64,000 nucleotides of DNA from an uncultured cyanobacterium (GTDB taxonomy: Bacteria; Cyanobacteriota; Cyanobacteriia; Cyanobacteriales; CAWCAG01). The position numbers and the translations under genes were made by a program. Of this stretch, positions 1 to 14,583 are shown piece after piece; the first letter of the stretch is position 1, and each line of letters starts with the position of its first letter. The stretch is taken from positions 1,984,001 through 2,048,000 of the forward strand of contig CAWCAG010000005.1 in assembly GCA_963793425.1 (NCBI GenBank). The letters are read 5' to 3'. The notes below the pieces were generated by a model that saw only the letters and a list, made by a program, of their open reading frames with translations, searched no databases and was not told the origin of the DNA.

Positions 1-877
1 GTTTGTTTAAGTTTATTGGGGTTTACAGTGCCATTAGTAACTTATTGCTGCAAATCAAGTGGGATGAGTTTGGTTCATGGGCAGAATGGGTTGGTGCTTT
101 AGGGCAAATTTTAATTGCTGTTTTGGCCGTTTATGTAGCTTGGCAGCAGTATGTGATTTCTAAAGATTTAACCATTCGCCAAAATACCATTACCCAACAA
201 CAAACCATTGATGCTTATTTCCAAGGTGTCTCGGATTTGGCCCTGAATGACGAAGGATTATTGGAAGATTGGCCCCAAGAAAGGGCGATCGCAGAAGGAA
301 GGACTGCAGCAATTTTAAGTGGTGTAGATTCTATGGGGAAAGCGAAGATTTTACGTTTTCTTTCCCAATCTAGGTTACTTACTCCTTTAATGCGCGATCG
401 CCATTTAGGAAGACCAATTTTGGATGGTCAAGGTGGTTACGCAGAAGATCGTAGTTATGGTATTCGGGTAATTAGTTTAGGAGTTGTTTTAGCCGGGGCT
501 GATCTGTCTAAAACAGATTTACGTTGGACAGATTTAAGCGAAGCAAATATGGTGCGTGCCAACTTGGCAGGTTGCGATCTAGTTAAAGCTAATCTCTGTC
601 GCACGGTATTATACGAGGCCAATTTAGCAGGGGCTGATGTTAAGGGGACACGCTTTTTTTACGGCTCTATTAAAAGCGCTACTCCTCGTAGTCGTACCTC
701 TGGCCCAATTATAAAACCGGAGCTTGCACAGGTACAGTAATAGAAAAAGCTAACCTCGCTGGGGTAAAAAGAATGAGTGCCGACCAACGCTATTATTGTT
801 GCGCTTGGGGAGGAGAAAAAACCAGGGCAACTATTCCTGGAGGTTGTGAGGGAATTCCTAATAAGTTGGGGAGATGA
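1..877 (+). CDS. Pentapeptide-repeat membrane protein, 5' end outside the window, apparent -1 frameshift at CCC 704-706
   Basis: A(D/N)Lxx repeats. Adding one C at 704-706 continues the frame as PNYKTGACTGTVIEKANLAG...YYCCAWGGEKTRATIPGGCEGIPNKLGR to TGA 875-877, a C-terminus I recognise for this cyanobacterial family. Confidence 0.8.
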
Positions 878-949
878 GAGGGGAAGTAATTAAGTAACAA
901 GTTAAGAACTTACTATTACTTGTTACCACTAGCAACTAGCCATTAGCCA

Positions 950-2239
950 TTAGCCATTATTAATTTCATTCCATTCTTCTGCCGCATCTTTAACTGCATC
1001 CTTGACAGTTTTCTTTTCTAACATTGCTGCTTGTAAGTTTTCGTAAATCAACTTTTGGAGGCTGTTGAGATTCTTCATTGCTGGTACTAAAACCTTGGCA
1101 TCATCAATTTGTTTAGCACTTACTTTGCGGGCATATTCCACAGAAGAAAGATTAGCTTCTTTTCCAGTTTGAGAAATATATTCTTCAATTCCTTCTTGGG
1201 TGGAAGGTAAAACGTTGGCTGCTTTAGCGAAGGCTAATTGGTTTTCTGTATTGGTGACAAAAGTTGCAAAATCTATAGCTTTTTTTGGTTTGCTAGTATC
1301 GCGGGGAATGACTAGATTCATCACTGCCACATTCTTTAAGCCAGTTTCTCCAGTGATTTGGGGTGCAGAAGCTGAAACAGCAGAAATTGCTGGGGCATTA
1401 TTAGCGATCGCCTTTAAAAATTCTGCACCGGAAGAAAGCAAGGCGGTTTCTCCTGCTTGATAAAGTTCAATGGCGTAGCGATGTCCTTGGGTGAGGACTT
1501 CTTTAGGTAAAAGTTCTTGTTGATAAAGGTCTACCCAATATTGAAAAGCAGCTAAACCTTCTGGGGTATCAAAAGCAGCATTCCCTTCTTCGTCTACTAG
1601 CTTAACCCCCATTTGTACTAAAGATTCTAAGACTTCACCAGAATCATCGGGTGCAAAAGTAGCAAAGAAAGCATATTTACCTGTTTTGTCTTTAATTTGC
1701 TTAGCAAACTCAGCTAATTCTTCGTAGGTAGCTGGGGGTTTACTAACCTCGGCTTTTTCTAACAATTCTTGGTTATAAATAGTAACTCTGGTAGTTAAAT
1801 ACCAAGGAAAACCAAAACTAATATCTTCAATAGTGCTAGCTTGCCAAATATTTTCTAAGTAACTTTGTTTCACCTCTGGAGAAATGGCTTCATCTAAGTT
1901 TAACCAGGCATCCCGTGTGGCTAATTGAGAAGCAAAATTAGGATTGAGGTTGACTACATCAGGGGCATTTTTAGCTGATACAGCAGTGAGAATTTTACTC
2001 TCCATAGCCGACCAAGGTACATCTATCCATTTGACCTTGGTTTGAGGATTTTCTGCTTCAAAATCAGCGATTAAACCGTCAAAGTATTCGGTAAACTCTG
2101 GCTGTAGTTGCATTGTCCAAAACTCAAGTTCCTGCCCTGTTGCTGAATTTGGGCCAGGGTTACAGCTTATTAACCAGCTTATTAATAATCCCAATAGCGC
2201 CCATAAGCCCAGACGAGGGAGGTTTCGGATTTTGCTCAT
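950..2239 (-). CDS. Sugar ABC transporter substrate-binding lipoprotein
   Basis: Lipobox-like LISC after a hydrophobic signal; SBP family 1 pattern (FWTMQL, APDVVNLN, FPWYLTT). Confidence 0.88.
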   Translation of the reverse strand: MSKIRNLPRLGLWALLGLLISWLISCNPGPNSATGQELEFWTMQLQPEFTEYFDGLIADFEAENPQTKVKWIDVPWSAMESKILTAVSAKNAPDVVNLNPNFASQLATRDAWLNLDEAISPEVKQSYLENIWQASTIEDISFGFPWYLTTRVTIYNQELLEKAEVSKPPATYEELAEFAKQIKDKTGKYAFFATFAPDDSGEVLESLVQMGVKLVDEEGNAAFDTPEGLAAFQYWVDLYQQELLPKEVLTQGHRYAIELYQAGETALLSSGAEFLKAIANNAPAISAVSASAPQITGETGLKNVAVMNLVIPRDTSKPKKAIDFATFVTNTENQLAFAKAANVLPSTQEGIEEYISQTGKEANLSSVEYARKVSAKQIDDAKVLVPAMKNLNSLQKLIYENLQAAMLEKKTVKDAVKDAAEEWNEINNG

Positions 2240-2410
2240 TTTTACTCAGATTAAGATGATCAATTATTTTAGTGGATATCCCAAAGCAACAGCATAGCCA
2301 TACTGTTCTAATAACATTATGACGTGCAAACAAAAGGACGTACAATAAGCAGCTATGTTGCCTAAATTCAAGTTAAAGGCAGCTTTTCAGTAAGAATATA
2401 GGTTGATTTT

Positions 2411-2668
2411 ATGAATTCTGATCGTCATCGTACCTACTGGCGGGCCAATATCGCTTTAATTAGAAACTTGTTAATAGTTTGGGCTTTAGTTTCTTTAGTG
2501 TTCGGTATTCTCCTCGTCCAACCCTTAAATAATATTCGCTTTTTTGGTGTACCTTTCGGTTTTTGGATCGCCCAACAAGGTTCAATTATTGTTTTTGTCG
2601 GGTTGATATTTATCTACGCTGTAAAAATGGATAAATTAGACCGCAAACATGACAACATTAAACATTAA
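2411..2668 (+). CDS. DUF4212 / solute:sodium symporter small subunit
   Basis: Two TM segments, YW..N and GFWIAQQGS motifs, directly upstream of an SSS permease. Confidence 0.9.
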   Translation: MNSDRHRTYWRANIALIRNLLIVWALVSLVFGILLVQPLNNIRFFGVPFGFWIAQQGSIIVFVGLIFIYAVKMDKLDRKHDNIKH

Positions 2669-2688
2669 ACATTTTATTGAAAATTATT

Positions 2689-4356
2689 ATGTCAGCAGTA
2701 GAAATTTGGACAACTTTATTTGTTGGTCTTTCTTTAATACTTTATGCCTATATTGGTTGGCGATCGCGGGTTAAGGATAGTAAAGGCTTTTTTGTGGCTG
2801 GGCAAAATGTCCCTGCCTTAGCTAATGGAGCAGCAACCGCAGCCGATTGGATGTCTGCGGCTTCATTTATTTCGATGGCGGGGTTAATCTCGTTTTTGGG
2901 TTACGATGGCTCAATTTATTTAATGGGTTGGACTGGGGGTTATGTCCTCTTAGCTTTGTTGCTAGCTCCCTATTTACGTAAGTTTGGTAAGTATACGGTT
3001 CCGGATTTTGTCGGCGATCGCTACTATTCTAATGGTGCTCGTTTAGTGGCGGTGGTGGCGGCGATTTTTGTTTCCCTAACCTATGTCGCAGGACAGATGC
3101 GAGGGGTGGGCATCGTCTTTAGCCGCTTTCTGCAAGTCCCTGTGGAAACTGGGGTTGTCATCGGCATGATCATTGTTGGTTTCTTTGCTGTGTTAGGAGG
3201 TATGAAGGGCATCACTTGGACTCAGGTGGCTCAATACTGCGTCTTAATTGTGGCTTACTTAATCCCAGCAATTGCTTTAGCTTGGATGCTTACAGGCAAT
3301 CCTGTCCCTCAATTAGCCTTTACTTTCAGCGACATCGCCGACAAACTCAATGCCGTTCAAACAGATTTAGGTTTTGCTGAATATACAGCCCCCTTTGCCA
3401 ACAAATCGATGTTGGATGTGTTGTTTATCACCATTGCTTTAATGGTAGGGACAGCGGGTTTGCCCCATGTGATTGTCCGTTTTTACACCGTCCCTGATGT
3501 ACGTGCCGCCAGGTTTTCGGCGGGTTGGGCTTTACTATTTATCGCCATTCTATACACCACTGCCCCAGCTTTGTCAATGTTCGCCCGCTATAACTTAATT
3601 CAATCTCTCCACGACAAGCCTGTAGAAGAGGTACAACAATTAGATTGGGCAACTAAATGGCAGGCGACGGAATTATTACAATTTGAGGATAAAAATGGTG
3701 ATGGACGTTATCAATTAACCCCGGATGAAACCAGCAATGAAATTATTATTGATCGGGATATTATTGTCCTTTCTACCCCAGAAATAGCTAAACTCGCCCC
3801 TTGGGTAATTGCCTTAGTTGCTGCCGGAGGTTTAGCGGCTGCCCTTTCTACGGCTTCGGGCTTATTACTGGTGATTTCTAGTTCCATCGCCCACGATATT
3901 TATTATCGTATTATTAACCCCGAAGCATCGGAAACAAAACGAGTTTTTGTCGGCAGAATTATGGTGGGTTTTGCTTTAGTTATTGCCGGGTATTTTGGCA
4001 TCAATCCCCCCGGTTTTGTCGGGCAGGTAGTCGCCTTTGCTTTTGGTTTAGCCGCAGCAAGTTTCTTTCCTGCTATTTTCCTGGGCATCTTTGATAAACG
4101 TACTAATTCTGAGGGTGCGATCGCCGGTATGATTATCGGTTTAGCTTTTACTACTTTTTATATTGTCGGTGTCAAATTCTTCAACATGGAACCCTGGTTT
4201 TTTGGTGTTTCAGCAGAAGGAATTGGCACTTTAGGAATGATGATTAATTTAATTGTCACCTTAATTGTTTCTCGCCTAACTCCACCGCCTCCCCAAGAAA
4301 TTCAAGACTTAGTAGAAGATTTGCGTACACCAGCAATCATTAACAAACAAGCATAA
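2689..4356 (+). CDS. actP: Cation/acetate symporter (ActP-like, sodium:solute symporter family)
   Basis: ATAADWMSAASF and GTAGLPHVIVRFYTVP motifs, many TM helices; start placed at ATG 2689. Confidence 0.85.
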   Translation: MSAVEIWTTLFVGLSLILYAYIGWRSRVKDSKGFFVAGQNVPALANGAATAADWMSAASFISMAGLISFLGYDGSIYLMGWTGGYVLLALLLAPYLRKFGKYTVPDFVGDRYYSNGARLVAVVAAIFVSLTYVAGQMRGVGIVFSRFLQVPVETGVVIGMIIVGFFAVLGGMKGITWTQVAQYCVLIVAYLIPAIALAWMLTGNPVPQLAFTFSDIADKLNAVQTDLGFAEYTAPFANKSMLDVLFITIALMVGTAGLPHVIVRFYTVPDVRAARFSAGWALLFIAILYTTAPALSMFARYNLIQSLHDKPVEEVQQLDWATKWQATELLQFEDKNGDGRYQLTPDETSNEIIIDRDIIVLSTPEIAKLAPWVIALVAAGGLAAALSTASGLLLVISSSIAHDIYYRIINPEASETKRVFVGRIMVGFALVIAGYFGINPPGFVGQVVAFAFGLAAASFFPAIFLGIFDKRTNSEGAIAGMIIGLAFTTFYIVGVKFFNMEPWFFGVSAEGIGTLGMMINLIVTLIVSRLTPPPPQEIQDLVEDLRTPAIINKQA

Positions 4357-4360
4357 TCTC

Positions 4361-4494
4361 GTAGGGTGGGCAAATAAACCGTGATCTTTGGGTAACTCAA
4401 TTACAAAATTGCTTTGCCCACCTAATAACTATGGTGGGCAAATAAACAATCATCTTGGGCATGACTAATAACGAAAGTATTTTGCCCACCCTAC
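4361..4494. repeat. Tandem pair of GTAG-family REP-like hairpins (GGTGGGCAAA...TTTGCCCACC)
   Basis: Two consecutive inverted-repeat units bounded by GTAGGGTGGGCA and TGCCCACCCTAC, between convergent genes. Confidence 0.75.
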
Positions 4495-4517
4495 TTTTTT
4501 TGTTGCTGAGTTTCTCG

Positions 4518-4754
4518 CTATTTTTGAAAGTTAGTGATAATTTCGCTAATTCCTTTAAGCAATACTCGGCAAAAGTAAGCTAAGGCGAGAATAGTTATTA
4601 TGGTAGAATCGCTGTTGAAATTTGGCAAATCAGCAGGAGTTTCTGTTAGTAAGTTGGGGTCTTGATTAGTTAAAGTGTTGGCAGTTTCTTCAGAGATGAA
4701 AGTGATTTCTCTGGTTTGGTTATAGTGAATGATTTCTGTTTGAGTTTGTAACAT
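4518..4754 (-). CDS. Small hypothetical protein with a C-terminal transmembrane helix
   Basis: 78-aa ORF, AAGGAG Shine-Dalgarno just upstream of the ATG, hydrophobic IITILALAYF segment near the C-terminus. Confidence 0.65.
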   Translation of the reverse strand: MLQTQTEIIHYNQTREITFISEETANTLTNQDPNLLTETPADLPNFNSDSTIITILALAYFCRVLLKGISEIITNFQK

Positions 4755-4838
4755 CTTTTTCTCCTTTATTTGCTAACTAGCTTAGAAATAAATTGTTAGT
4801 TTGACTAGTGAAATAAAGAGAGTTAAGCAGACGTAATC

Positions 4839-4901
4839 TAGCCAGATAGCCAGAGTTAGCCAGAGTCAGCCAGTCAGCCAGAGAATCAATTCTCTGGCTG
4901 A
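4839..4901. promoter_or_regulatory. AGCCAG direct-repeat array ending in a 13-bp inverted repeat; candidate operator
   Basis: Five AGCCAG copies; TCAGCCAGAGAAT-ca-ATTCTCTGGCTGA at 4874-4901; lies between divergent genes. Confidence 0.45.
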
Positions 4902-4908
4902 AATATTA

Positions 4909-5021
4909 AGTCCGTTTAAACGGACTGGTTATTTGTTTGATTTACAGAACTATTGTAGGTTGGGTTAGGCTACAAAATATCTAGAGAAAAACATGATAAC
5001 TTTGTCTTGCCGTAACCCAAC
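4909..5021. repeat. Short palindromic elements
   Basis: Perfect 18-bp palindrome AGTCCGTTTAAACGGACT (4909-4926) and a GTAG-led GTTGGGTTA...TAACCCAAC REP-like element (4955-5021). Confidence 0.6.
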
Positions 5022-5190
5022 AAAACCTCAAAGCAAAAAGCGAACTTTTTTTATCCTATCCTCACAGAAAATACCTCTAAGCAGAAGCAAGTAGAAGGAA
5101 AGAGAAACAAGGTGAAATGACCTTGCAAAGCTTGGTTAAGTAGCAAATAATATGCTTATTGAAACCAAAGTTATTTTTGCTTATAAAACC

Positions 5191-6036
5191 ATGACACTAT
5201 CAATTTATCTCGAACAGGAAGAAGCTTTCTTAGAAGCAATGGCGACTCGCTTCGGATTTCAAGGTAAGGCGAGAATTGTTTTTTTGCAACGCTTTCTTAT
5301 GGCTAATAACGATTTGAACAATCAAAACTTAGCGGAAATTGTTGCTACTGATTTAATTGTGGGGACAAAAAGCGGTGATGCGGCACGTATTTTTAAAGAT
5401 TATTTGAATAAAACTATTTGTCCGCAATTAGCTAAAGAGGGTTGTGATTTTGGTGAGGCGACAAAGGGGAAGTGGAAGATTGCCCAACATTGGTTACAAG
5501 GAGAAGTTTTTCCTCAATGGCAAGCAAAACAACCATCTCTTCCTGTGACAATTAAACAACTTTGGCATCGCTTAGTAGATTTGGCTAAGCCAGGTTTAAA
5601 TATGGGACCAGTTTTAGCGACAGATATTTTGAATATGTGGGGAGAATACGAAGACTGTGTACCCTTGGGGAGTTCTATTAAGTTTGTGGTAAACTTACCT
5701 AATCCAGGTTATTTAATCTTATTAGAACAAGCTACTTCCGGAGATATTTATTGTTTATCTCCTTCGTTTTTTGCGCCGCGACCAAAGTTTCCGGCAGGGA
5801 AAGTTTCTTTGCCGCAATCAGGGGTATCGCGAAAGGCATTTAGAATTACTGGCAACCCTGGTACAGAGAAAGTTGTGGCGGCGATTATGCCAGGAAAGCC
5901 AGCTTTGAGTTGGTTGTTGGAAGGGGAAAGGAAACCTTTAATAATTAGGGAAAGTCATCTACAAGATTTGTTGTTTTGTTTGCAAAAAGAAAAAGCAGCA
6001 AAGATTTTTTATACGGAATATACAGTTACAGCTTAG
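5191..6036 (+). CDS. N-terminal helical (possibly HTH-like) domain plus C-terminal DUF4384-like beta domain
   Basis: C-terminal pattern LGSSIKF..N....GYLILL....SGDIYCLSPS...G.E.V.A matches DUF4384; start placed at ATG 5191. Confidence 0.7.
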   Translation: MTLSIYLEQEEAFLEAMATRFGFQGKARIVFLQRFLMANNDLNNQNLAEIVATDLIVGTKSGDAARIFKDYLNKTICPQLAKEGCDFGEATKGKWKIAQHWLQGEVFPQWQAKQPSLPVTIKQLWHRLVDLAKPGLNMGPVLATDILNMWGEYEDCVPLGSSIKFVVNLPNPGYLILLEQATSGDIYCLSPSFFAPRPKFPAGKVSLPQSGVSRKAFRITGNPGTEKVVAAIMPGKPALSWLLEGERKPLIIRESHLQDLLFCLQKEKAAKIFYTEYTVTA

Positions 6037-6106
6037 TTTTTCTAGGGCAGGTAACTAATTTTGTTTGTGTTGAAGTACTAATTATTTTAAATCAGAGATT
6101 AAAGTT

Positions 6107-9100
6107 ATGAGTGAACGGGAAATAAATGAGCAACGCTACCAAGAATATCTGCAATTGATTGGTGAATTGTTGCAATGTGATGATGGTAAAGAAAGTGAAA
6201 TCTTGGAAGCGAATCAAGATTTATTGGATGCAGATTTTTTAACTGTAGTAGAACAGGTTGCCAATTATTTAACGAAAGAAGGAAAGGAAAATAATGCTAA
6301 CTGGTTGCGTAACTTTGCTGCAAAATTGAGAGGAGAGACAGAAACTAATCCTTGGGAAGAGTTAAATCAACAGGTATTACGACTCTATCAACAAGGACAA
6401 TACAACGCCGCTATACCTTTAGCAGAACAAGCACTCGACTTAGCTAAACAAACTTGGGGAGAAAACCATCCTGATGTAGCTACTAGCCTCAATAATTTAG
6501 CCTGGTTATACAAATCTCAAGGAAGATGGAGTGAAGCAGAACCTCTTTACCTGAATGCTTTACAACTAAGGAAAAAACTATTAGGAGAAAACCATCCTGA
6601 TGTAGCTACTAGCCTCAATAATCTAGCCTTGTTGTACGAATCCCAAGGAAGATGGAGTGAAGCAGAACCTCTTTACCTGAATGCTTTACAACTAAGGAAA
6701 AAACTATTAGGAGAGAACCATCCTGATGTAGCTACTAGCCTGAATAACTTAGCTGGCTTGTACAAATCCCAAGGAAGATGGAGTGAAGCAGAACCTCTTT
6801 ACCTGAATGCTTTACAACTAAGGAAAAAACTATTAGGAGAGAACCATCCTGATGTAGCTACTAGCCTGAATAATTTAGCTGGCTTGTACAAATCCCAAGG
6901 AAGATGGAGTGAAGCAGAACCTCTTTACCTGAATGCTTTACAACTAAGGAAAAAACTATTAGGAGAGAACCATCCTGATGTAGCTACTAGCCTCAATAAC
7001 TTAGCTGGCTTGTACAAATCCCAAGGAAGATGGAGTGAAGCAGAACCTCTTTACCTGAATGCTTTACAACTAAGGAAAAAACTATTAGGAGAGAACCATC
7101 CTGATGTAGCTACTAGCCTCAATAATCTAGCTGGTTGTACAAATCCCAAGGAAGATGGAGTGAAGCAGAACCTCTTTACCTGAATGCTTTACAACTAAGG
7201 AAAAAACTATTAGGAGAGAACCATCCTGATGTAGCTACTAGCCTCAATAATTTAGCAATTTTGTATGCAGCCAGCGATCAGACTAAAAAAGCTTTCTCTT
7301 TAATGCAACAAGCAACCACCATAGAAAATAAGCTTATTAGTAACCTCTTCGCTGCTAGTTCCCAACAAACCCGTTTTGCTTACTTAAAAACAGTTAGAGG
7401 TAATTTTGAAGCTTTTCTCTCCCTGATCCTCAACCACTTAGCAGACAACAACGAAGCAGTAACCGCCGCCTTTAACTTAGTCTTGCAACGCAAATCTCTC
7501 ACTGCTGCTGCCTTAACTGCCCAAAACCAAGCCCTTTATAGTGGACGCTATCCCCATTTACAAAAGGAATTTAGCGAATTGCGTCGTTTAAGTGATGAAA
7601 TTGTCCAGTTGACTTTCGCGACTCCAGCAGAACAAAGCCATAACCAAACTAACTTAGTAGAGTTGCAACAGCAATACAATGAATTAGAAAGGCAACTAGC
7701 AACCCAAGTACCAGAAATTGCTTTGCAGGAACAAACCGTTAACCATGAAACTGTTCGGACTATTTTGCCCAGGGGAACTAGTTTAATTGAGTTTGTTTGT
7801 TTTAAAATCTTTGACTTTAAAGCCCCTGCTAAGGAAGAATGGCAACCTGCCCGCTACGTTGCTTTTATTGTTTCTGGTGGTAGCAAAACAATAGGCTTAG
7901 TAGATTTAGGAGTTGCTACAGAGATCGATAATTTAATTCAAACCTGTCGTCAATCTGTTGCTGTGGGGGGCAGGGTTTTAGAGATGTGGGATGAAGAAGC
8001 AACGGCAACATTTCCCTTCCGAATCTACAATCCCTCTACAGCAAAGGAACTCAGCCAAAAAATCTTTGCCCCCTTGGTTTTAGAATTAAAAGGACAAACT
8101 CAATTAATTTTTGCCCCCGACGGTGCTTTAAACTTGCTGCCCTGGCAAATTATGCCCCATCCTACTAACCCAGAAACCCTGTTGTTAGACAATTACCAAA
8201 TTAGCTATCTTAGTTGTGGGCGAGATTTGTTGCGATCGCAACTTAAAACAGAACGTCCCGTAGCCCAACCTCTAATCCTCGCCGATCCTGACTTTGACCT
8301 CGATAACTCCAACCCTGACAAAACTCCTGCCACCAGCTTGCTAGATAGCTTAGATGGAGTTTTTGCCCCTGCCCCCGGCACTCGCTATTTAGGGGAAAAG
8401 GTAGCGACGATGTTGGGAGTTAAACCTTGTTTAGGTAAGGATGCTGTAGCAACTCTGCTGACTAATCATAAAGCCCCTCGCATTTTACTGATTGCGACTC
8501 ATGGCTATTTTTCAGGGCTTAAACAGGTTGGGCATTATTGGCAGTTAATTATGGCTTTGTTAACTTCTCCCGACAAGGCAGATAGGATTTTAAAAAGTAA
8601 CCAAAACTTGTTAGATCAAGAGTTACTTACGCAAATGGCAGAAGCAGTAACTTTGCTTCAAGAAAGAGAACAAGAAAATGCTGCTCAATACCTAAGAAGT
8701 ATAACTGTCGCAATTACCGAACTACTGCAAAAATTACCTGAAGACAGACTCTCCAACGCCCCAGCAGAAAACCCGATGTTACGTTCTGGATTAGCTTTAG
8801 CGGGGGCGAACGCTTGGTTAAAGGGGCAACAACTTCCCCCACAAGTAGGTAAAGGTTTCCTCTTCGCCCAAGAGGTTGCGGGGTTGGATCTTTGGGGGAA
8901 TGAAATCACGGTACTTTCTGCTTGCAATACGGCTATGGGAGATATTCAAGTTGGGGAAGGAGTTTTCGGCTTGCGTCGTGCCTTCGCGGTTGCGGGGGCG
9001 AAGACTTTAATTATGAGTTTGTGGCCCGTTCCCGACAAAGCAACTGCCCTGTTAATGGAACAGTTTTTCAGCAATCTACAAGCAGGTTTAGGGAAAGGGG

Positions 9101-9297
9101 AGGCGTTACAAACCGCCCAAAACTACATCCGCAACATCACTGTTAAGGAGTTGCATCAGTCGGAGTTAGGGAAAGAGGTTTTAGAAGAGTTGTTGCAACA
9201 CAAAAAAGATGAGGTTAAGTACCAAGAAGATGATCTGCCCTTAAATCATCCTTTTTACTGGGGGGCTTGGGTTTGTCAAGGAGAGTATCAGATTTAG
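6107..9297 (+). CDS. TPR-CHAT caspase-like protease, split by a 1-bp deletion at about 7131-7135
   Basis: 42-aa TPR repeats (HPDVATSLNNLA); CHAT motifs APDGALNLLPW, ATHG (His 8500-8502), LSAC (Cys 8923-8925), SLWPVPD, HPFYWGAW; ORFs 6107-7183 and 7135-9297 join within repeat 6. Confidence 0.88.
6458..7257 (+). repeat. 126-bp near-identical tandem repeats encoding TPR units (6 full units plus 1 partial)
   Basis: Units start at 6458, 6584, 6710, 6836, 6962, 7088 and 7213. Confidence 0.95.
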
Positions 9298-9485
9298 AGG
9301 CCAGGTAAGGCAAAGTTAATTTCCAAAGTTGTTTTTATGGCGATCGCAACATAGAGATGGGGAAGCTGGTTTGAAAACTCTCTGGCGAGGACTTTCTACC
9401 TTCTATCATCTACTCGAAGGAGTAAACCTTGCTTCCACATCTTAGTCTGGGCATACTTTTCTCCTACTTTGCCTTATAGACATCT
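9298..9485 (+). ncRNA. ssrS: Probable 6S RNA (ssrS/ssaA); ends approximate, strand less certain
   Basis: About 185 nt: closing stem 9306-9316/9466-9476, central bubble, inner stem 9356-9372/9424-9441, two terminal hairpins (9373-9396, 9399-9420); resembles cyanobacterial 6S RNA as I recall it. Confidence 0.7.
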
Positions 9486-9503
9486 TCGGAAAAGAGGGTT
9501 GAC

Positions 9504-9540
9504 TAATCTGCGGTAATTGAAAAGCAATCGCCGCAGATTA
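9504..9540. terminator. Hairpin between the 6S-like RNA and acnB
   Basis: TAATCTGCGG...CCGCAGATTA inverted repeat. Confidence 0.55.
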
Positions 9541-9573
9541 ATTCAGCAACGTCAGGGAGAGAAGTTAAATAAC

Positions 9574-12177
9574 TTACTTCCCACTCCCCACCGGCATACC
9601 TAAAATATCTTCAATCTTAGGCATATCTTCTATAGGAATCACTCTACCTTCATCTTCAAAGTTAGCGATTTGGTTAAAGTTAAGATAACGATATAACTCT
9701 CCGGCAAAGGGGTCAATTTTCTCTTTGACAATCTCTAAATACTCCTCAACAGAAGGGATGCGCCCCAACAAAGCACAGACTGCTGCTAACTCTGCTGAAC
9801 CCAAGTATACCCTTGCACCTTTACCCATGCGGTTGTTGAAGTTGCGGGTGGAAGTAGAAAAGACTGTTGCCCCATCTTCAACCCTAGCTTGGTTGCCCAT
9901 ACATAAAGAACATCCCGGCATTTCAGTCCTGGCCCCAGCAGCAGCAAAGACACCGTAAACCCCTTCTTCTCGCAAATGCTTCTCATCCATACGGGTAGGA
10001 GGACAAACCCACAAACGCACTTTAACCTTACCTGCTTCTAATACCTTAGCAGCAGCGCGGTAATGACCAATGTTGGTCATACAAGAACCAATGAAAACCT
10101 CATCAATCTTGTCTCCGGTGCATTCCGACATCAATTTAACATTATCAGGATCATTGGGGGCTGCAACAATGGGTTCAGTGATTTCATTCAAGTTCACCTC
10201 AACCACATCAGCATACTCGGCATCAGCATCAGCAGACATTAATTCAGGATTAGCCAACCATGCTTCCATTTTGGCAACCCGACGCATTAAAGTACGGGCA
10301 TCAGAATAACCCCTTGCTGCCATGTTTTTCAACAGGGCAATGTTAGACTGCAAATACTCCTTAACTGTCTCTTCTCCCAATTTTATCGTAGAACCAGAAC
10401 AAGAACGTTCCGCCGTAGCATCCGTAAGTTCAAAGGCTTGTTCTACTTTAAGATCCGGCAAACCTTCCATTTCCATAACTCTGCCGGAGAAAACATTTTT
10501 CTTATTCTCCTTAGCAACGGTTAACTTACCTTCTTGCATGGCTACATAGGGAATAGCATTAACAACATCCCGCAAAGTCACTCCCGGTTGCAAATCACCC
10601 GTAAACCTTACCAAAACCGACTCTGGCATATCCAAAGGCATCGCCCCTAAAGCAGCAGCAAAAGCGACTAAACCAGACCCAGCCGGAAAGGAAATTCCCA
10701 AAGGAAAGCGGGTATGAGAATCGCCCCCAGTCCCCACAGTATCTGGTAAAAGCATCCGGTTTAACCAAGAGTGAATGATACCATCTCCCGGACGCAAAGC
10801 AACCCCACCCCGCACCGCAAAAAAGTCTGGTAAGTTTTTGTGGGTGGTGACATCAACGGGTTTAGGATAAGCAGCCGTGTGGCAAAAGGTTTGCAAGACT
10901 AAATCAGCACTAAAACCCAAACAAGCCAACTCTTTTAATTCATCGCGAGTCATCGGCCCTGTAGTATCCTGGGAACCAACGGTTGTCATCAAAGGTTCAC
11001 AACTTTGTCCTGGACGCACTCCGACAACACCACAAGCTTTGCCGACCATTTTTTGCGCTAAGGTAAAGCCCTTGCCTGTATCTTGAGGAGGAGTGGGGCG
11101 AATGAACAGGGGACTAGGTTCCAAACCTAATGCAGCGCGGGTTTTATCTGTCAAACTACGGCCAATTAACAGAGGAATACGCCCCCCAGCCCTAACTTCA
11201 TCGGTGATGGTTTCGGGTTTTAGTTTGAAAGTAGAAATTACTTCCCCGGCTGCGTTGGTGATTTCCCCTTTGTAAGGATGAATAGTAATTACATCCCCGG
11301 TATTCATTTTGGTAACATCACACTCAATAGGCAAAGCCCCAGAATCTTCTGCGGTGTTGAAAAAGATGGGTGCAATTCCACCACCTAAAATATAACCCCC
11401 AGCCCTTTTATTTGGAACAAAAGGAATATCTTCTCCCAAATGCCAAAGTACCGAGTTAATAGCAGATTTACGAGAAGAACCCGTACCCACTACATCCCCA
11501 ACATAAGCCACCGGATGTCCTTTTTCTTTCAACTTAGCAATAGTTGCCAGACCCTCTGGCATACTCGATTCCAGCATCACTAAAGCGTGGAGGGGAATAT
11601 CTGGGCGAGTAGTAGCATGGGGGGCAGGGGATAAATCATCGGTGTTGGTTTCCCCAGGTACTTTAAACACCGTCACCGTAATTGCTGCTGGTAATTCCGG
11701 GCGAGTCGTAAACCACTCAGCATCAGCCCAAGCATCCACTACTTGTTTAGCGTAAGAGTTAGTTTCTGCAAGTTCAAGAACGTCATGAAAAGAATCATAA
11801 ACTAAAAGGGTCTTACTCAAAGCTTTAACTCCAGCCGTAGCTAATTCAGCCTTAGCAGAAAGCAAATCTACCAAAGATTGTACGTTATAACCCCCCACCA
11901 TAGTTCCTAAAAGCTCCGCCGCTTCAAGAGGAGAAATAAGCGGACATTTCACCTCCCCTTTCGCCACAGAAGTTAAGAAACTAGCCTTAACATAAGCTGC
12001 CTGATCTACCCCAGGAGGAACACGATCCCGTAACATCCCTAAAAGTGCTTCTTCTTCTCCTGATGGAGGATCTTTAAGTAAATCGCATAACTGGGCAGTT
12101 TGTTCAGTATCCAAAGGGAGAGGGGGAATTCCTAATGCAGCCCTTTCTGCAACCTGTTGACGATATTCTTTGAGCAT
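9574..12177 (-). CDS. acnB: Aconitate hydratase B
   Basis: 867 aa; [26 protein letters not shown] and [10 protein letters not shown] motifs. Confidence 0.98.
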
Positions 12178-12285
12178 TAAATTCTATCTCCTCTAAAACC
12201 TGGTTAAGCTAACTTCAATTTATTATCGGTCTAAGTCTTTTAATTTACGGAATAAGAAACTATTTTGTTGTTCATTAGACACTAA

Positions 12286-12321
12286 AAAAGAGCGAAACTC
12301 AACTTAAGGAGTCGCTCTTTT
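12286..12321 (-). terminator. Intrinsic terminator of the DUF4278 genes
   Basis: AAAAGAGCGA...TCGCTCTTTT hairpin with a U-tract on the minus strand. Confidence 0.6.
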
Positions 12322-12349
12322 AGAGAAATTTTTTTCTTGACCTTAAATC

Positions 12350-12763
12350 TTACATTGATAAGGTTAACTCTTTTCCTTCTTCTTCTAATATACAAACCAA
12401 ATTTTTATCACCATTAGCTTTAGCAACTTCCATGCGGTGTTCTAAGTTATGGCGAATATTGTTTAAATGGGCTTTGGTTAATTCCTGGGCAGTTTTTTGA
12501 ACTGGCTTCTTTCTTCTTCTAATCTGTTGACGACTAAGTTTTACCAATTCAAAGGCTTTCCTGGCTTCTGTTTGGATTGCCGGATAACGATTGTAGCGAA
12601 CGCCACGATACTGCAAATTTAATTTGGGGGCGAGTTGAGGAACGTGTTTGGGATAGTGATGCTTCCATTCCTTGCCGCGATACTTGCCCGCAATTTCCCC
12701 TTCGCTCACTTCTAAAGATAAAGGTTCGCGTTCGTAACTAACACCGCGATAGCAATATTTCAT
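12350..12763 (-). CDS. DUF4278 domain fused to a PirA-like C-terminal domain
   Basis: Three YRG motifs; C-terminal H..NIRHNLEHRMEVAKANGD..LV..LE.E resembles the PII-interacting regulator PirA. Confidence 0.75.
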   Translation of the reverse strand: MKYCYRGVSYEREPLSLEVSEGEIAGKYRGKEWKHHYPKHVPQLAPKLNLQYRGVRYNRYPAIQTEARKAFELVKLSRQQIRRRKKPVQKTAQELTKAHLNNIRHNLEHRMEVAKANGDKNLVCILEEEGKELTLSM

Positions 12764-12799
12764 TTCTTCACCTCTAAGTGCTATAGATATTAAGCTTAT

Positions 12800-12979
12800 T
12801 TAATGAGTATAGGTAATGCCGCGATAAGTAAATTTACCTGATGGTTTGCTACGAGTAGCACCTTTAACACGATGTACTCTCCATTCATGTCCACGGTATT
12901 TCCCACCAACTTCCCCTTCTGCAACTTCTAAGTCATGGGGATGGGAATTATAATTAATGCCACGGTAAGTAAGTTTCAT
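12800..12979 (-). CDS. DUF4278 small protein, 59 aa (not in the ORF track)
   Basis: MKLTYRGINYNSHPHDLEVAEGEVGGKYRGHEWRVHRVKGATRSKPSGKFTYRGITYTH; GGAG upstream; paralogous to the next gene. Confidence 0.88.
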   Translation of the reverse strand: MKLTYRGINYNSHPHDLEVAEGEVGGKYRGHEWRVHRVKGATRSKPSGKFTYRGITYTH

Positions 12980-13035
12980 TGGTAATCTCCAAAAATATTG
13001 TTTTGATGGGCATACCGCCTATCTCAATTTATTTC

Positions 13036-13051
13036 TGTATCTATTGTGACA
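13036..13051. promoter_or_regulatory. Imperfect NtcA site
   Basis: TGTA-TCTATTGT-GACA, one mismatch to GTA-N8-TAC, about 57 bp upstream of the DUF4278 start. Confidence 0.5.
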
Positions 13052-13201
13052 TTTCTGCAAAAAAACTGCAACTAATCAGAAAAGCTGAATAAAAACAAGG
13101 ACACAAATGCTCAATCCACTTCCTAGCGAGGGATTAGAGTATCCTGCTTTTATTCCCTTGATACCAATTTATCAAGAAAGCTTAACTTAATCTAGTCAAA
13201 A

Positions 13202-13217
13202 TGTATTTTTAGATACA
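13202..13217. promoter_or_regulatory. NtcA consensus site
   Basis: TGTA-TTTTTAGA-TACA. Confidence 0.6.
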
Positions 13218-13297
13218 GAAAGTAATTATTTCTTTAAAAAGCTCGACTTCACATTCTGTAGATAAATGAACAGAGTCAAGCTAATAGCTAAAAAATA

Positions 13298-13558
13298 TTA
13301 ATGAATTTCTTGTAAAATCTGTAAAGCTAACTGAGCAAAAGGATCATCTCCCAACCTTCCTAAAGCTTCTTGCAATACTTCCCAATCAATCTCTGTCCCT
13401 GCTGTTGAAGGAACTAGTAAACCTATGTGTAAAAGCATTTGTCGTAAATCGTCTCGCATTCGCTGCCGTTTGGTTTCTAGAAGCGACATAGTACGGCGTA
13501 CGGAACGCTCTTGACGAAACGCTGTTGTTAAAGCGCCTGTTTCTGGGTCGTTATCCAT
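13298..13558 (-). CDS. Hypothetical protein
   Basis: 86-aa helical ORF with ATG start and a purine-rich upstream segment. Confidence 0.7.
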   Translation of the reverse strand: MDNDPETGALTTAFRQERSVRRTMSLLETKRQRMRDDLRQMLLHIGLLVPSTAGTEIDWEVLQEALGRLGDDPFAQLALQILQEIH

Positions 13559-13770
13559 CTAGATTATTCCCGTCTACCTTAAGGTATAAAAATACTGAAC
13601 GAGTAAATTAATATCTTTATAGGCATTAAAAACGATTTTCTAGGGACTATGACCTCGTGCTTAAAAGAAGTTTAGATATATAAAAATAGCAACAACTTAA
13701 TCTAGAGATAGTTACAAAACTTGGATCATCTCTAGATATAAGTTCACACATCGCAATATAAACTTTAAAT

Positions 13771-14583
13771 TCAAGCAAATACTCGATGATTTAAACAAGG
13801 CATTTGCCGCCTCACTTGTTGAAGTCGTTCAGGATTAATTTCTGCGATCGCCACTCCTGGCTCTTCCCCCGCATCGGCTAAAATAGTACCCCAAGGATCA
13901 ACAATCAAAGCATGACCGTGGCTTTGGCGCATTTTGTAGTGGATGCCAGTTTGGGCTGGGGCGATTATGTAACAGGTGTTTTCAATGGCTCTTGCTTGGA
14001 GAAGTACTTGCCAGTGATCCTTACCAGTGTAGGCAGTAAAGGCCGCAGGTACAAACATCAAATCCGCCCCCTTGCTAGCTAAATGGCTATATAACATCGG
14101 AAAGCGCACATCGTAGCAAACAGAAAGCCCGATGTTACCTAACTCTGGGGAAGGATATACCGGAGGCAACTTGCTACCCGCCATAACGGTACTAGATTCT
14201 TGATAAGTGTTACCGTCTGGTAAATCAACATCAAAGAGATGAACTTTTTCGTAACGGGCTAATTCTGTACCGCTAGAATCGATTAACAGAGCGGTATTGT
14301 ATACCTTGTTATCCTTGACTGGAACTGGGAAACCACCACCCAGAAGAGTAATTTGGAAACGCTGAGCCATGGTTTTGAGAAATTTCTCAGTTGCTTGGGC
14401 GATCGCCTCTCCTTGAGCAATTTTACTTGCTTCTGTACCGAGGAAAGAGAAGTTTTCTGGCAAACCCACCAACTCAGCCCCACGGCGTACAGCAAGTTCG
14501 ATCAATTCTTCTGCCTGAACCAGATTTTTTTCTAAATCTGGTTTACTTGTCATTTGAATGGCGGCGGCTAAATAAGATTTCAT
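13771..14583 (-). CDS. Carbon-nitrogen hydrolase (Nit1-like, deaminated glutathione amidase family)
   Basis: LPE, YEKVHLFD and VCYDVRFP (Glu-Lys-Cys triad). Confidence 0.93.
   Translation of the reverse strand: MKSYLAAAIQMTSKPDLEKNLVQAEELIELAVRRGAELVGLPENFSFLGTEASKIAQGEAIAQATEKFLKTMAQRFQITLLGGGFPVPVKDNKVYNTALLIDSSGTELARYEKVHLFDVDLPDGNTYQESSTVMAGSKLPPVYPSPELGNIGLSVCYDVRFPMLYSHLASKGADLMFVPAAFTAYTGKDHWQVLLQARAIENTCYIIAPAQTGIHYKMRQSHGHALIVDPWGTILADAGEEPGVAIAEINPERLQQVRRQMPCLNHRVFA

Follow-up and report, generated by a model that had tools for sequence, protein, structure and literature searches.

The partner and TPR-CHAT gene pair

The window analysed here is a stretch of 64,000 nucleotides (nt) from an uncultured cyanobacterium (assembly GCA_963793425.1, contig CAWCAG010000005.1, positions 1,984,001 to 2,048,000 of the forward strand). 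Near its start lie two co-oriented genes, the first encoding a small protein with a DUF4384 domain, which we call the partner, and the second a large protease with an array of TPR units and a CHAT domain. An earlier note made from the sequence alone, which also pointed to a repeat array, had proposed that these two and a divergent gene for 78 amino acids (aa) form a protease-gated signalling or defence module that works independently of CRISPR. The features it described were all found in the sequence, namely the partner/TPR-CHAT spacing, the catalytic dyad, the 78-aa open reading frame (ORF), the array and the housekeeping flanks. Those of the gene pair itself are as follows, with positions given in the window.

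5079-5118, plus strand: operator-like array of four tandem 10-nt units, ending 4 nt ahead of the -35-like hexamer
5123-5151, plus strand: promoter-like site TTGCAA-17-AATAAT of the partner/TPR-CHAT operon, 9 of 12 consensus matches; promoter-like signal in the region as a whole not enriched over shuffled sequence
5152-6036, plus strand: partner ORF of 294 aa; start codon placed at ATG 5191, giving a 281-aa protein
5191-5544, plus strand: partner N-domain (aa 14-131 of the 294-aa ORF), an undescribed helical domain and candidate sigma-4/LuxR-like helix-turn-helix (HTH)
5545-6036, plus strand: partner C-half, comprising a helix, the DUF4384 beta-sandwich (Pfam 5665-5880) and a C-terminal helix and strand
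5602-5604 (aa 151) and 5635-5637 (aa 162), plus strand: conserved Met/Leu codons of the partner
6107-7183, plus strand: 5' part of the TPR-CHAT gene, with an N-terminal helical motif (6143-6328) and then six TPR_12 units (TPR_12 E 1e-93); frame lost past 7134
6458-7256, plus strand: 126-bp tandem repeat, 6.3 copies with 97% matches, each copy being one TPR_12 unit
7135-9297, plus strand: 3' part of the TPR-CHAT gene, with the last TPR units, a helical middle region and the CHAT domain (Pfam E 8.6e-55)
8500-8502 (His456) and 8923-8925 (Cys597), plus strand: catalytic codons in the 3' ORF

Alignment with 22 homologues places the partner start at ATG 5191; because the promoter-like site occupies 5123-5151, the ATG at 5152 is excluded and 5191 fits. 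The next co-oriented ORF begins at 6107, leaving a gap of 70 nt between the two genes. Neither the partner nor the TPR-CHAT protein starts with a hydrophobic segment, and both therefore look cytoplasmic.

A search with the partner profile gave matches in 39 of 401 cyanobacterial genomes, and among 5.8 billion proteins the relatives of the partner fell into 39 clusters, all the taxon-named ones being cyanobacterial. From the genome matches, all 13 loci with a near full-length partner match were collected as set A, and 15 of the 28 rows matching on the partner C-half only were collected as set B (the other 13 were not fetched). In set A a co-oriented CHAT gene lies just downstream of the partner at 10 of 13 loci; at one of the remaining loci the contig ends within a TPR ORF and at two it stops right behind the partner, so that the count for informative loci is 10 of 11. 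The same arrangement is seen at 12 of the 15 set-B loci, and at a thirteenth (L067) the CHAT gene stands 7.3 kb off, behind the reverse transcriptase gene of a group II intron. Among 11 further loci retrieved from 185,579 species genomes, a CHAT gene was present in all eight with at least 3 kb of downstream sequence, the other three being short contigs. Examples of an intact orthologous pair are L085 of Oscillatoria sp. PCC 10802 and L088 of Argonema antarcticum.

The association was also found when the search started from the protease. The CHAT subfamily (CHAT region aa 200-720, E ≤ 1e-70) was detected in 18 of the 401 genomes, which is an undercount since three candidates were scored per genome, and for 16 of 20 non-self matches a partner match precedes on the same contig and strand, no more than 8 kb away; of the other four, two are at contig ends and two are without a partner. 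The pairing proposed in the earlier note is thus borne out in both directions (10/11, 13/15 and 8/8 from the partner; 16/20 from the protease), and we conclude that the partner and TPR-CHAT genes form a conserved, co-oriented, predicted two-gene operon. Flanking genes differ at every locus (UDG, GNAT, RNase III, TauD, a GUN4 kinase, AcrB, a transglutaminase), and the module therefore appears to be an independent unit. Two loci depart from the usual layout: L035 (G274:C1:1736817-1738806) has two tandem partner paralogues (262 and 291 aa) ahead of a single 1507-aa TPR-CHAT gene, and at L073 (G280:C2) three genes encode, in this order, a DUF4384 protein of 332 aa whose N-terminus is Cys-rich, a TPR protein of 526 aa on its own and a CHAT protein of 962 aa.

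The partner is absent from a genome of the same genus (G401, 97% complete) and from one of the same family (G402, 98% complete), and its nearest relatives belong to other families. In G401 both flanks are present at 88-89% identity, on different contigs, and window positions 4339-9554 are missing. A metagenome scan for related loci returned one spurious match of 23 residues. By its distribution the module is accessory DNA of filamentous cyanobacteria, patchy and often disrupted.

The protease and its frameshift

The CHAT domain (PF12770) scores 186.6 bits against a Pfam cut-off of 24, and in an alignment of 29 sequences the catalytic His456 is nearly invariant and Cys597 invariant. Its close TPR-CHAT homologues number ~4,000. 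If read through, the protease would comprise ~1060 residues; intact relatives have 1022-1071. The stretch from the catalytic His to the Cys contains an inserted second copy of the N-terminal helical motif of the protein (8533-8715; 37% identity, E 5e-10), an insert that is kept in the partner-linked CHAT subfamily and skipped by the paralogues of this genome. Scored with a hidden Markov model of the subfamily, the module CHAT reaches 624 bits and the best of ~20 same-genome paralogues 142 bits; on these scores it is a distinct subfamily. The 5.3-Mb genome holds 34 CHAT matches in all, several of them split, and some of the paralogues carry the N-terminal helical motif ahead of the CHAT domain instead.

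The TPR units are nearly identical to one another, which suggests a sensor arm that evolves fast. Behind NNLA the residue differs from unit to unit (W, L, G, G, G, G, I), and one K/E position is variable too; these variable positions are candidates for facing a ligand, in an array that may be under concerted evolution.

The gene is split into two frames by a one-base deficit at 7134/7135, within unit 6 of the 126-bp repeat; at the equivalent point units 3-5 read GCTGGCTTGTAC. Four DNA runs of one metagenome study cover the locus as contigs that break in this repeat. The only run contig covering 7134 (run X2) has an extra C behind 7134 that restores the frame, though this base may derive from another repeat unit, and the other three runs have no contig at this position. 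Comparison of the four runs with 4.3 kb of the locus revealed no other indel in the covered parts except a 9-nt in-frame insertion, cover being thin or missing at 6828-7115. The insertion lies behind 7992 in two of the four runs, and a dense cluster of substitutions marks the start of the TPR-CHAT gene (6130-6260); this insertion and the many substitutions show that the runs contain several strains. The frameshift may be either real or an assembly error, and with the protease reading as frameshifted the module may be inactive in this genome.

One alternative, to which we grant somewhat less than an even chance, is that the copy in this genome is a decaying remnant, a pseudogene pair without present function; this concerns the copy at hand and not the family. 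It would account for the one-base frameshift, the degenerate operator array described below and the absence of the module from G401 and G402. It fits less well with an intact partner ORF, with the frame-restoring base in the sole run contig over 7134 (subject to the reservation about its repeat unit) and with the lack of any other indel in the covered parts of the four runs save the in-frame one at 7992. Damage to the protease gene is also seen elsewhere, since an insertion sequence (IS; DUF772 + DDE) lies inside the gene of L063, and in L064 a transposase is present and CHAT absent; in L031 and L043 the gene is split by runs of N.

Partner domains, promoter repeats and nearby elements

The partner has DUF4384 (PF14326) at aa 172-243, with 37.2 bits against a Pfam cut-off of 27 and 40 bits in a genome-wide search. 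Its structural model (predicted local distance difference test, pLDDT, 89) consists of a helical N-domain, a loosely ordered stretch (pLDDT < 50, aa 160-163) and a beta-sandwich. The structural matches of this DUF4384 sandwich are MG domains of the macroglobulin type, from complement C5, complement C4 and alpha-2-macroglobulin (Z 7.3-7.7, root-mean-square deviation (rmsd) ~2.2 Å, 82-88 residues aligned), which is a generic fold match. Two residues near the domain boundary are conserved: of 23 sequences, 22 have M or L at aa 162, within the loop of pLDDT < 50, and at aa 151 there are 12 with M and 4 with L, the Met equivalent to aa 151 being invariant in all 10 set-B partners compared.

Judged from its relatives, the partner is composed of a constant C-half and an exchangeable N-domain of at least three types, the C-half alone recurring joined to other N-domains. 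Set-B partners (239-255 aa), which come from Nostocaceae-like relatives, have a Cro/C1 HTH as their N-domain, HTH_26 being matched in 7 of 12 and above the cut-off in two of these. Compared with the Protein Data Bank (PDB), the set-B partner profile finds the HTH of HipB at E 0.0012, a match that covers the HTH only; a single set-B partner finds nothing under E 1. A third variant, P0039, has as its N-domain NNH5, a NACHT N-terminal helical domain. No homology between the window-type and Cro/C1-type N-domains was detected by hhalign.

The window-type N-domain was harder to place. Pfam assigns no shared family to its members (0 of 19) and no HTH family to the partner, the partner profile finds nothing under E 0.4 among all PDB chain sequences, Foldseek of the whole partner against the PDB gave nothing usable, and a search of the ESM Atlas with the N-domain returned only clusters of its own family (score 0.75). 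A scan with NCBIfam and PADLOC placed none of four locus proteins in a specific family. Folded alone (pLDDT 86.7), the N-domain is matched by VIA-align mostly to LuxR/NarL/GerE and sigma region-4 HTH domains, at Z 4.4-6.2 and hence below the noise mark of 8; the matches include Spo0A-C (Z 6.2), NarL (Z 5.5, rmsd 3.0) and region 4 of SigF (Z 5.0, rmsd 2.4). Taken by itself, the modelled fold is no more than suggestive of an HTH. Of the make-up that the earlier note had put as a question for 5191-6036, an HTH plus DUF4384, the DUF4384 part is confirmed, and for the N-domain there are these low-scoring matches.

Among 1.84 billion representative proteins the window-type N-domain occurs in 65, most of them partner-like. 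In nine genomic fusions that we fetched it is followed by a STAND NTPase (NACHT or AAA_16) in eight and by TPR only in one, and in 16 longer proteins from the representative scan it is followed by NACHT, NB-ARC or AAA_35 in 13, the remaining three having pentapeptide repeats, a PRK kinase and the architecture of P0044. The latter protein (545 aa) has an N-terminal part of 260 aa without assignment, a REC receiver and the window-type N-domain at aa 405-519, and may be a response regulator in which the new domain has the output role. It bears on DNA binding because response regulators carry their output domain after REC.

Further indications come from the promoters. At L031, L033, L034 and L035, the set-A loci closest to the window, three to five tandem, 10-nt-phased GTAGA units occupy approximately -115 to -70 and end at a TTGCCA- or TTGACG-like -35 element, and at more distant set-A loci the array words are others (ATGTCGC in L036, GATGTCT in L039). 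In the window the array at 5079-5118 has one exact GTAGAA (5091-5096) and three degenerate units before the TTGCAA -35 element. The GTAGA motif was defined after inspection of five loci and then tested on 11 new ones; GTAGAR was found within 200 nt upstream in 9 of the 11 (background 0.00049 per nt, ~0.1 expected per 200 nt), loci that amount to ~7 independent lineages, since L084, L085 and L087 are near-identical upstream and the L093 partner gene is 88% identical to that of L034. The other two have arrays of GTAGAT, GTAGAC or GTAGGT. Two whole genomes, of 8.6 and 7.7 Mb, have a triple-phased array at the module promoter and nowhere else, and a third has none under the strict pattern.

Set-B promoters show a different layout, with four copies of a 10-11-mer, spaced 12 + 21 + 12 nt, that surround a TTGAC -35 element and also cover the -10 element. 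The repeat word varies by lineage (TATATGAGTT-like or TATATAACTT-like). The observed copy number was reached by 0 of 200 shuffles at L064, 7 at L061, 8 at L065, 16 at L066 and 20 at L070, and was not significant against shuffles at five other loci. Because the promoter repeats change together with the type of N-domain, we propose that the partner is a sequence-specific autoregulator, and this co-variation is the strongest argument that the N-domain would bind DNA. In all, four indirect lines point to DNA binding: the HTH fold matches at low Z, the Cro/C1 HTH of the sister variants, the REC fusion and the promoter repeats. The DNA-binding N-domain suggested in the earlier note has this indirect support.

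Two other features pointed out in the earlier note, upstream of the partner, are not part of the module.

4518-4754, minus strand: 78-aa ORF with AAGGAG 6-7 nt ahead of its ATG and a hydrophobic C-terminal stretch
4839-4901: short repeat array between the divergent 78-aa ORF and the partner

We rejected the 78-aa gene as a module member. Despite its good Shine-Dalgarno site it is an orphan, without a match in 13 related loci or in 60 genomes of relatives, the same genus included, and among 5.8 billion proteins it matches only itself (99% identical, 3 contigs). The three-gene layout whose recurrence the earlier note had proposed to survey is accordingly reduced to the two large genes.

The flagged AGCCAGAG array with its palindromes (4839-4934), considered as an operator, was likewise discarded as part of a dispersed composite element resembling repetitive extragenic palindromes (REP). 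This element consists of the hairpin AGTCSGTTTAAACSGACT (4909-4926), a 13-nt palindrome and AGCCAGAG-type octamer repeats. Copies at C5:1761900-1762860 and 1768070-1768160 (L076) flank an IS200-like Y1 transposase gene (L076:4007-4450; Y1_Tnp E 1.7e-31), and the genome has 10 occurrences of the hairpin, three of which form a row at 183-nt spacing beside another CHAT gene (C5:150512-150895). Element and transposase together look like a REP/RAYT-type system.

Two other small repeats were seen upstream. Positions 4361-4494, after the symporter gene, hold paired GTAGGGTGGGCAAA / TTTGCCCACCCTAC hairpins that form a small dispersed repeat, and an 80-nt element at 4955-5036 has several matches at 77-85% identity in the same-genus genome G401. 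A scan of 4200-9700 against Rfam at E ≤ 1 gave no match. The neighbouring genes, identified with Pfam, serve transport and metabolism (a solute-binding protein, a DUF4212 + SSF symporter pair, aconitase B, DUF4278 and a nitrilase-type hydrolase). Elsewhere in the genome, part of contig C1 is rich in CHAT genes (L077, C1:195000-214000), one of which has a DUF928 gene as its neighbour.

Proposed working, alternatives and known systems

From its gene order and domains, the pair is probably a protease-gated regulator, a cytoplasmic version of a craspase-like pair with a DNA-binding-type head. The specific reading that we favour, and on which we consider the balance to be even, is an autoregulated two-gene protease switch in which a DNA-binding-type partner is coupled to, and cut by, the TPR-CHAT protein. 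The product of the first gene would be a small cytoplasmic protein whose N-domain binds the phased repeats at the operon's own promoter and whose DUF4384 C-half serves as a handle coupling it to the protease encoded by the second gene. Capture of a ligand by the TPR arm would activate CHAT, which would cut the partner between its DNA-binding domain and its DUF4384 half, with the Met/Leu at aa 151 or 162 as the candidate P1 residue. Cutting of the partner would then alter transcription of the operon and free the protease, the N-domain or both.

We infer contact and cleavage from the constancy of the DUF4384 half, from the fusion of DUF4384 in cis to caspase-fold proteases and, by analogy, from the DUF4384 group of Csx30; the conserved Met/Leu may, by the same analogy, point to the site of cleavage. 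The trigger and any role of the module in defence are put forward with equal reserve. A complex prediction for CHAT ORF aa 40-720 and partner aa 14-294, both with alignments, returned a score of 0.00 and the verdict 'no answer', and is evidence neither way.

A number of results weigh against the autoregulated switch. The protease is frameshifted not only in this genome but also in L038, the partners of L064 and L075 have no CHAT gene, and two CHAT-subfamily genes have no partner. In PADLOC-DB 2.0 the 78-aa ORF and the partner match nothing, a generic TPR model picks up the TPR half, and for the CHAT half there is a weak SspG match (E 0.029). All HTH fold matches of the N-domain remain under the VIA-align noise mark, and Foldseek of this domain against the PDB found nothing at E < 2.7. 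At the promoter, the window array is the most degenerate seen and lacks the strict phased pattern, and the GTAGA motif was a post hoc definition tested on partly redundant loci. The sign of regulation is ambiguous, with set-A arrays upstream of the -35 element and set-B arrays across the promoter. Finally, a wider GTAGA regulon in this genome was considered and rejected, the phased pair occurring 6 times against 11 for the control.

A bolder version of this switch is, in our view, tentative and rather doubtful. It holds that the module is a free-standing, CRISPR-independent, craspase-like switch whose TPR arm senses an invader or stress ligand directly; that the protease cuts an autoregulator docked through DUF4384; that the released DNA-binding domain, of an unnamed type shared with NACHT proteins, reprograms transcription; and that DUF4384 is a general docking domain for caspase-fold proteases. 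If true, such a general dock would explain both the DUF4384 tails of Csx30 and the orthocaspase-DUF4384 fusions.

Other arrangements of the same parts can be envisaged. The partner could act in the manner of an antitoxin, as an autorepressor of HTH type that keeps the protease inactive through its DUF4384 half, until on a trigger the partner is lost or displaced and the freed CHAT degrades cellular or invader proteins, in abortive infection or programmed cell death. A small HTH-type gene followed at short spacing by a large enzyme, operator-like promoter repeats, a sister-partner profile that matches the HTH of the antitoxin HipB best and a protease that is often knocked out, as expected of a costly gene (frameshifts in this genome and L038, the IS in L063, loss beside a transposase in L064), all accord with this. 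There is, however, no sign of toxicity, and an enzyme of ~1060 aa with a long sensor-like TPR arm is unlike the usual toxin; we consider this reading unlikely, with the proviso that it overlaps the autoregulated switch, since the partner could be inhibitor and substrate both.

Less probable in our estimation is a plain local regulator that controls only transcription of the protease gene, with DUF4384 used for ligand sensing or dimerisation and the protease acting on unrelated substrates. The promoter repeats and HTH evidence fit it equally, and contact between partner and protease is itself deduced indirectly. Yet what stays constant across at least three N-domain types is the C-half and not the DNA-binding domain, which would be odd for a mere regulator, and DUF4384 is both fused in cis to caspase-fold proteases in the same genome and the C-terminal domain of some Csx30 substrates.

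We give little credence to a homotypic adaptor, in which the N-domain would be an effector-associated (Death-like) domain that pairs with its copies in NACHT NTPases, following the 'EAD principle' set out in Kaur et al. 2020 (PMC7159879), and recruits the DUF4384 protein and protease to an NLR-like complex: the domain does head NACHT/NB-ARC/AAA_35 proteins at their extreme N-terminus (8 of 9 fetched fusions, 13 of 16 longer proteins), and one partner variant carries NNH5, which is likewise a NACHT N-terminal domain, but this genome has a single copy of the N-domain (E ≤ 0.1, 25 candidates scored) and thus nothing for it to pair with, promoter repeats that vary with N-domain type fit DNA binding better, and a published list of the N-terminal adaptors of NACHT proteins itself includes HTH domains (bioRxiv 10.1101/2022.07.19.500537).

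CHAT proteases are among the most expanded families of multicellular cyanobacteria, and almost none has a known substrate or trigger. A CHAT subfamily with a dedicated neighbour offers a concrete candidate substrate that is cheap to test. The module would show whether Csx29/Csx30 logic exists without CRISPR, and hence bear on how the craspase module may have arisen; it also suggests what DUF4384 might do, and it provides a candidate new DNA-binding domain that also heads NLR-like NACHT proteins, with predicted operator sequences in hand. Should the pair work as proposed, it could serve as a compact protease-controlled transcription switch. Our literature searches found mentions of DUF4384 and no functional characterisation, nothing that combines a CHAT domain with helix-turn-helix, cleavage and repressor, and only unrelated work on TPR-CHAT in cyanobacteria; DUF4384 goes unmentioned in the main text of either paper by Kaur et al. 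(2020, 2021).

Among known systems, the pair resembles Csx29/Csx30 of type III-E CRISPR. As described for that pair, a gene for a TPR-CHAT caspase-fold protease adjoins one for a two-domain protein with a flexible linker. The partner shares with one group of Csx30 the order of N-domain, linker and DUF4384 C-domain, DUF4384 being reported for one of the groups into which the C-terminal domains of Csx30 fall (Kato et al., bioRxiv 10.1101/2022.08.17.504292). Csx29 is reported to cut Csx30 after Met427 in the inter-domain linker (AVGM|KKDK; same preprint); the partner studied here has a conserved Met/Leu between its domains. The outcome in Csx29/Csx30 is described as transcriptional (RpoE), as is the outcome proposed here.

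There are also differences. No Cas7-11, CRISPR RNA or CRISPR array lies near the module: ORFs of at least 50 aa in 1-14000 were listed and the larger ones scanned, no array was seen in 4300-9400 and no PADLOC Cas model was matched, a search limited to these stretches. This agrees with the CRISPR independence proposed in the earlier note, no CRISPR or cas genes lying within ~5 kb of the module. In our pairs the DUF4384 half is constant and the N-domain variable, the reverse of what is described for Csx30, and the N-domain looks DNA-binding rather than, as reported for Csx30, sigma-factor-binding. Unlike Csx29/Csx30, the operon here has operator-like repeats of its own and its CHAT domain a helical insert between His and Cys.

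Adjacent genes for a protease and a small HTH-type regulator are also described for IrrE/DdrO (PMC12828697), CapP/CapH (bioRxiv 10.1101/2022.04.27.489752; PMC13228613) and ImmA/ImmR. In IrrE/DdrO, cutting off the C-terminal domain of the regulator is reported to inactivate it (PMC12828697), and CapP/CapH are reported to control immune operons (bioRxiv 10.1101/2022.04.27.489752; PMC13228613). As in such protease/HTH-repressor pairs, operator-like sites stand at a promoter, here as sequence features alone. Those systems use a COG2856/M78 zinc peptidase, whereas the enzyme here is a Cys-His CHAT with a TPR arm; Pfam reports only TPR families and CHAT in it, so it does not belong with the COG2856/M78 metallopeptidases. 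A further difference is that the present pair, on what has been observed, would regulate the promoter from which it is itself transcribed.

The orthocaspases, too, combine a caspase-fold protease with DUF4384, which accounts for 23 of 316 accessory domains tabulated for cyanobacteria (PMC8283722, Table 1), and both other DUF4384 proteins of this genome are Peptidase_C14-DUF4384 fusions (735 and 756 aa). Those are cis fusions with Peptidase_C14, whereas here there are two proteins, a CHAT domain and an added DNA-binding-type domain. DdvA of Myxococcus is described as a CHAT-bearing protein linked to transcription control of defence genes (PMC11506125); unlike DdvA/DdvS, which are reported to be exported or membrane proteins, neither protein here has an N-terminal hydrophobic segment, and the partner has a cytoplasmic DNA-binding-type domain. 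With the type II toxin-antitoxin pair HipB/HipA (PDB 2wiu) the module shares a small HTH-type gene in first position, operator-like promoter repeats and the HipB match of the sister-partner profile, which covers the HTH only; its second gene encodes a sensor-like protease of ~1060 aa and not a small toxin.

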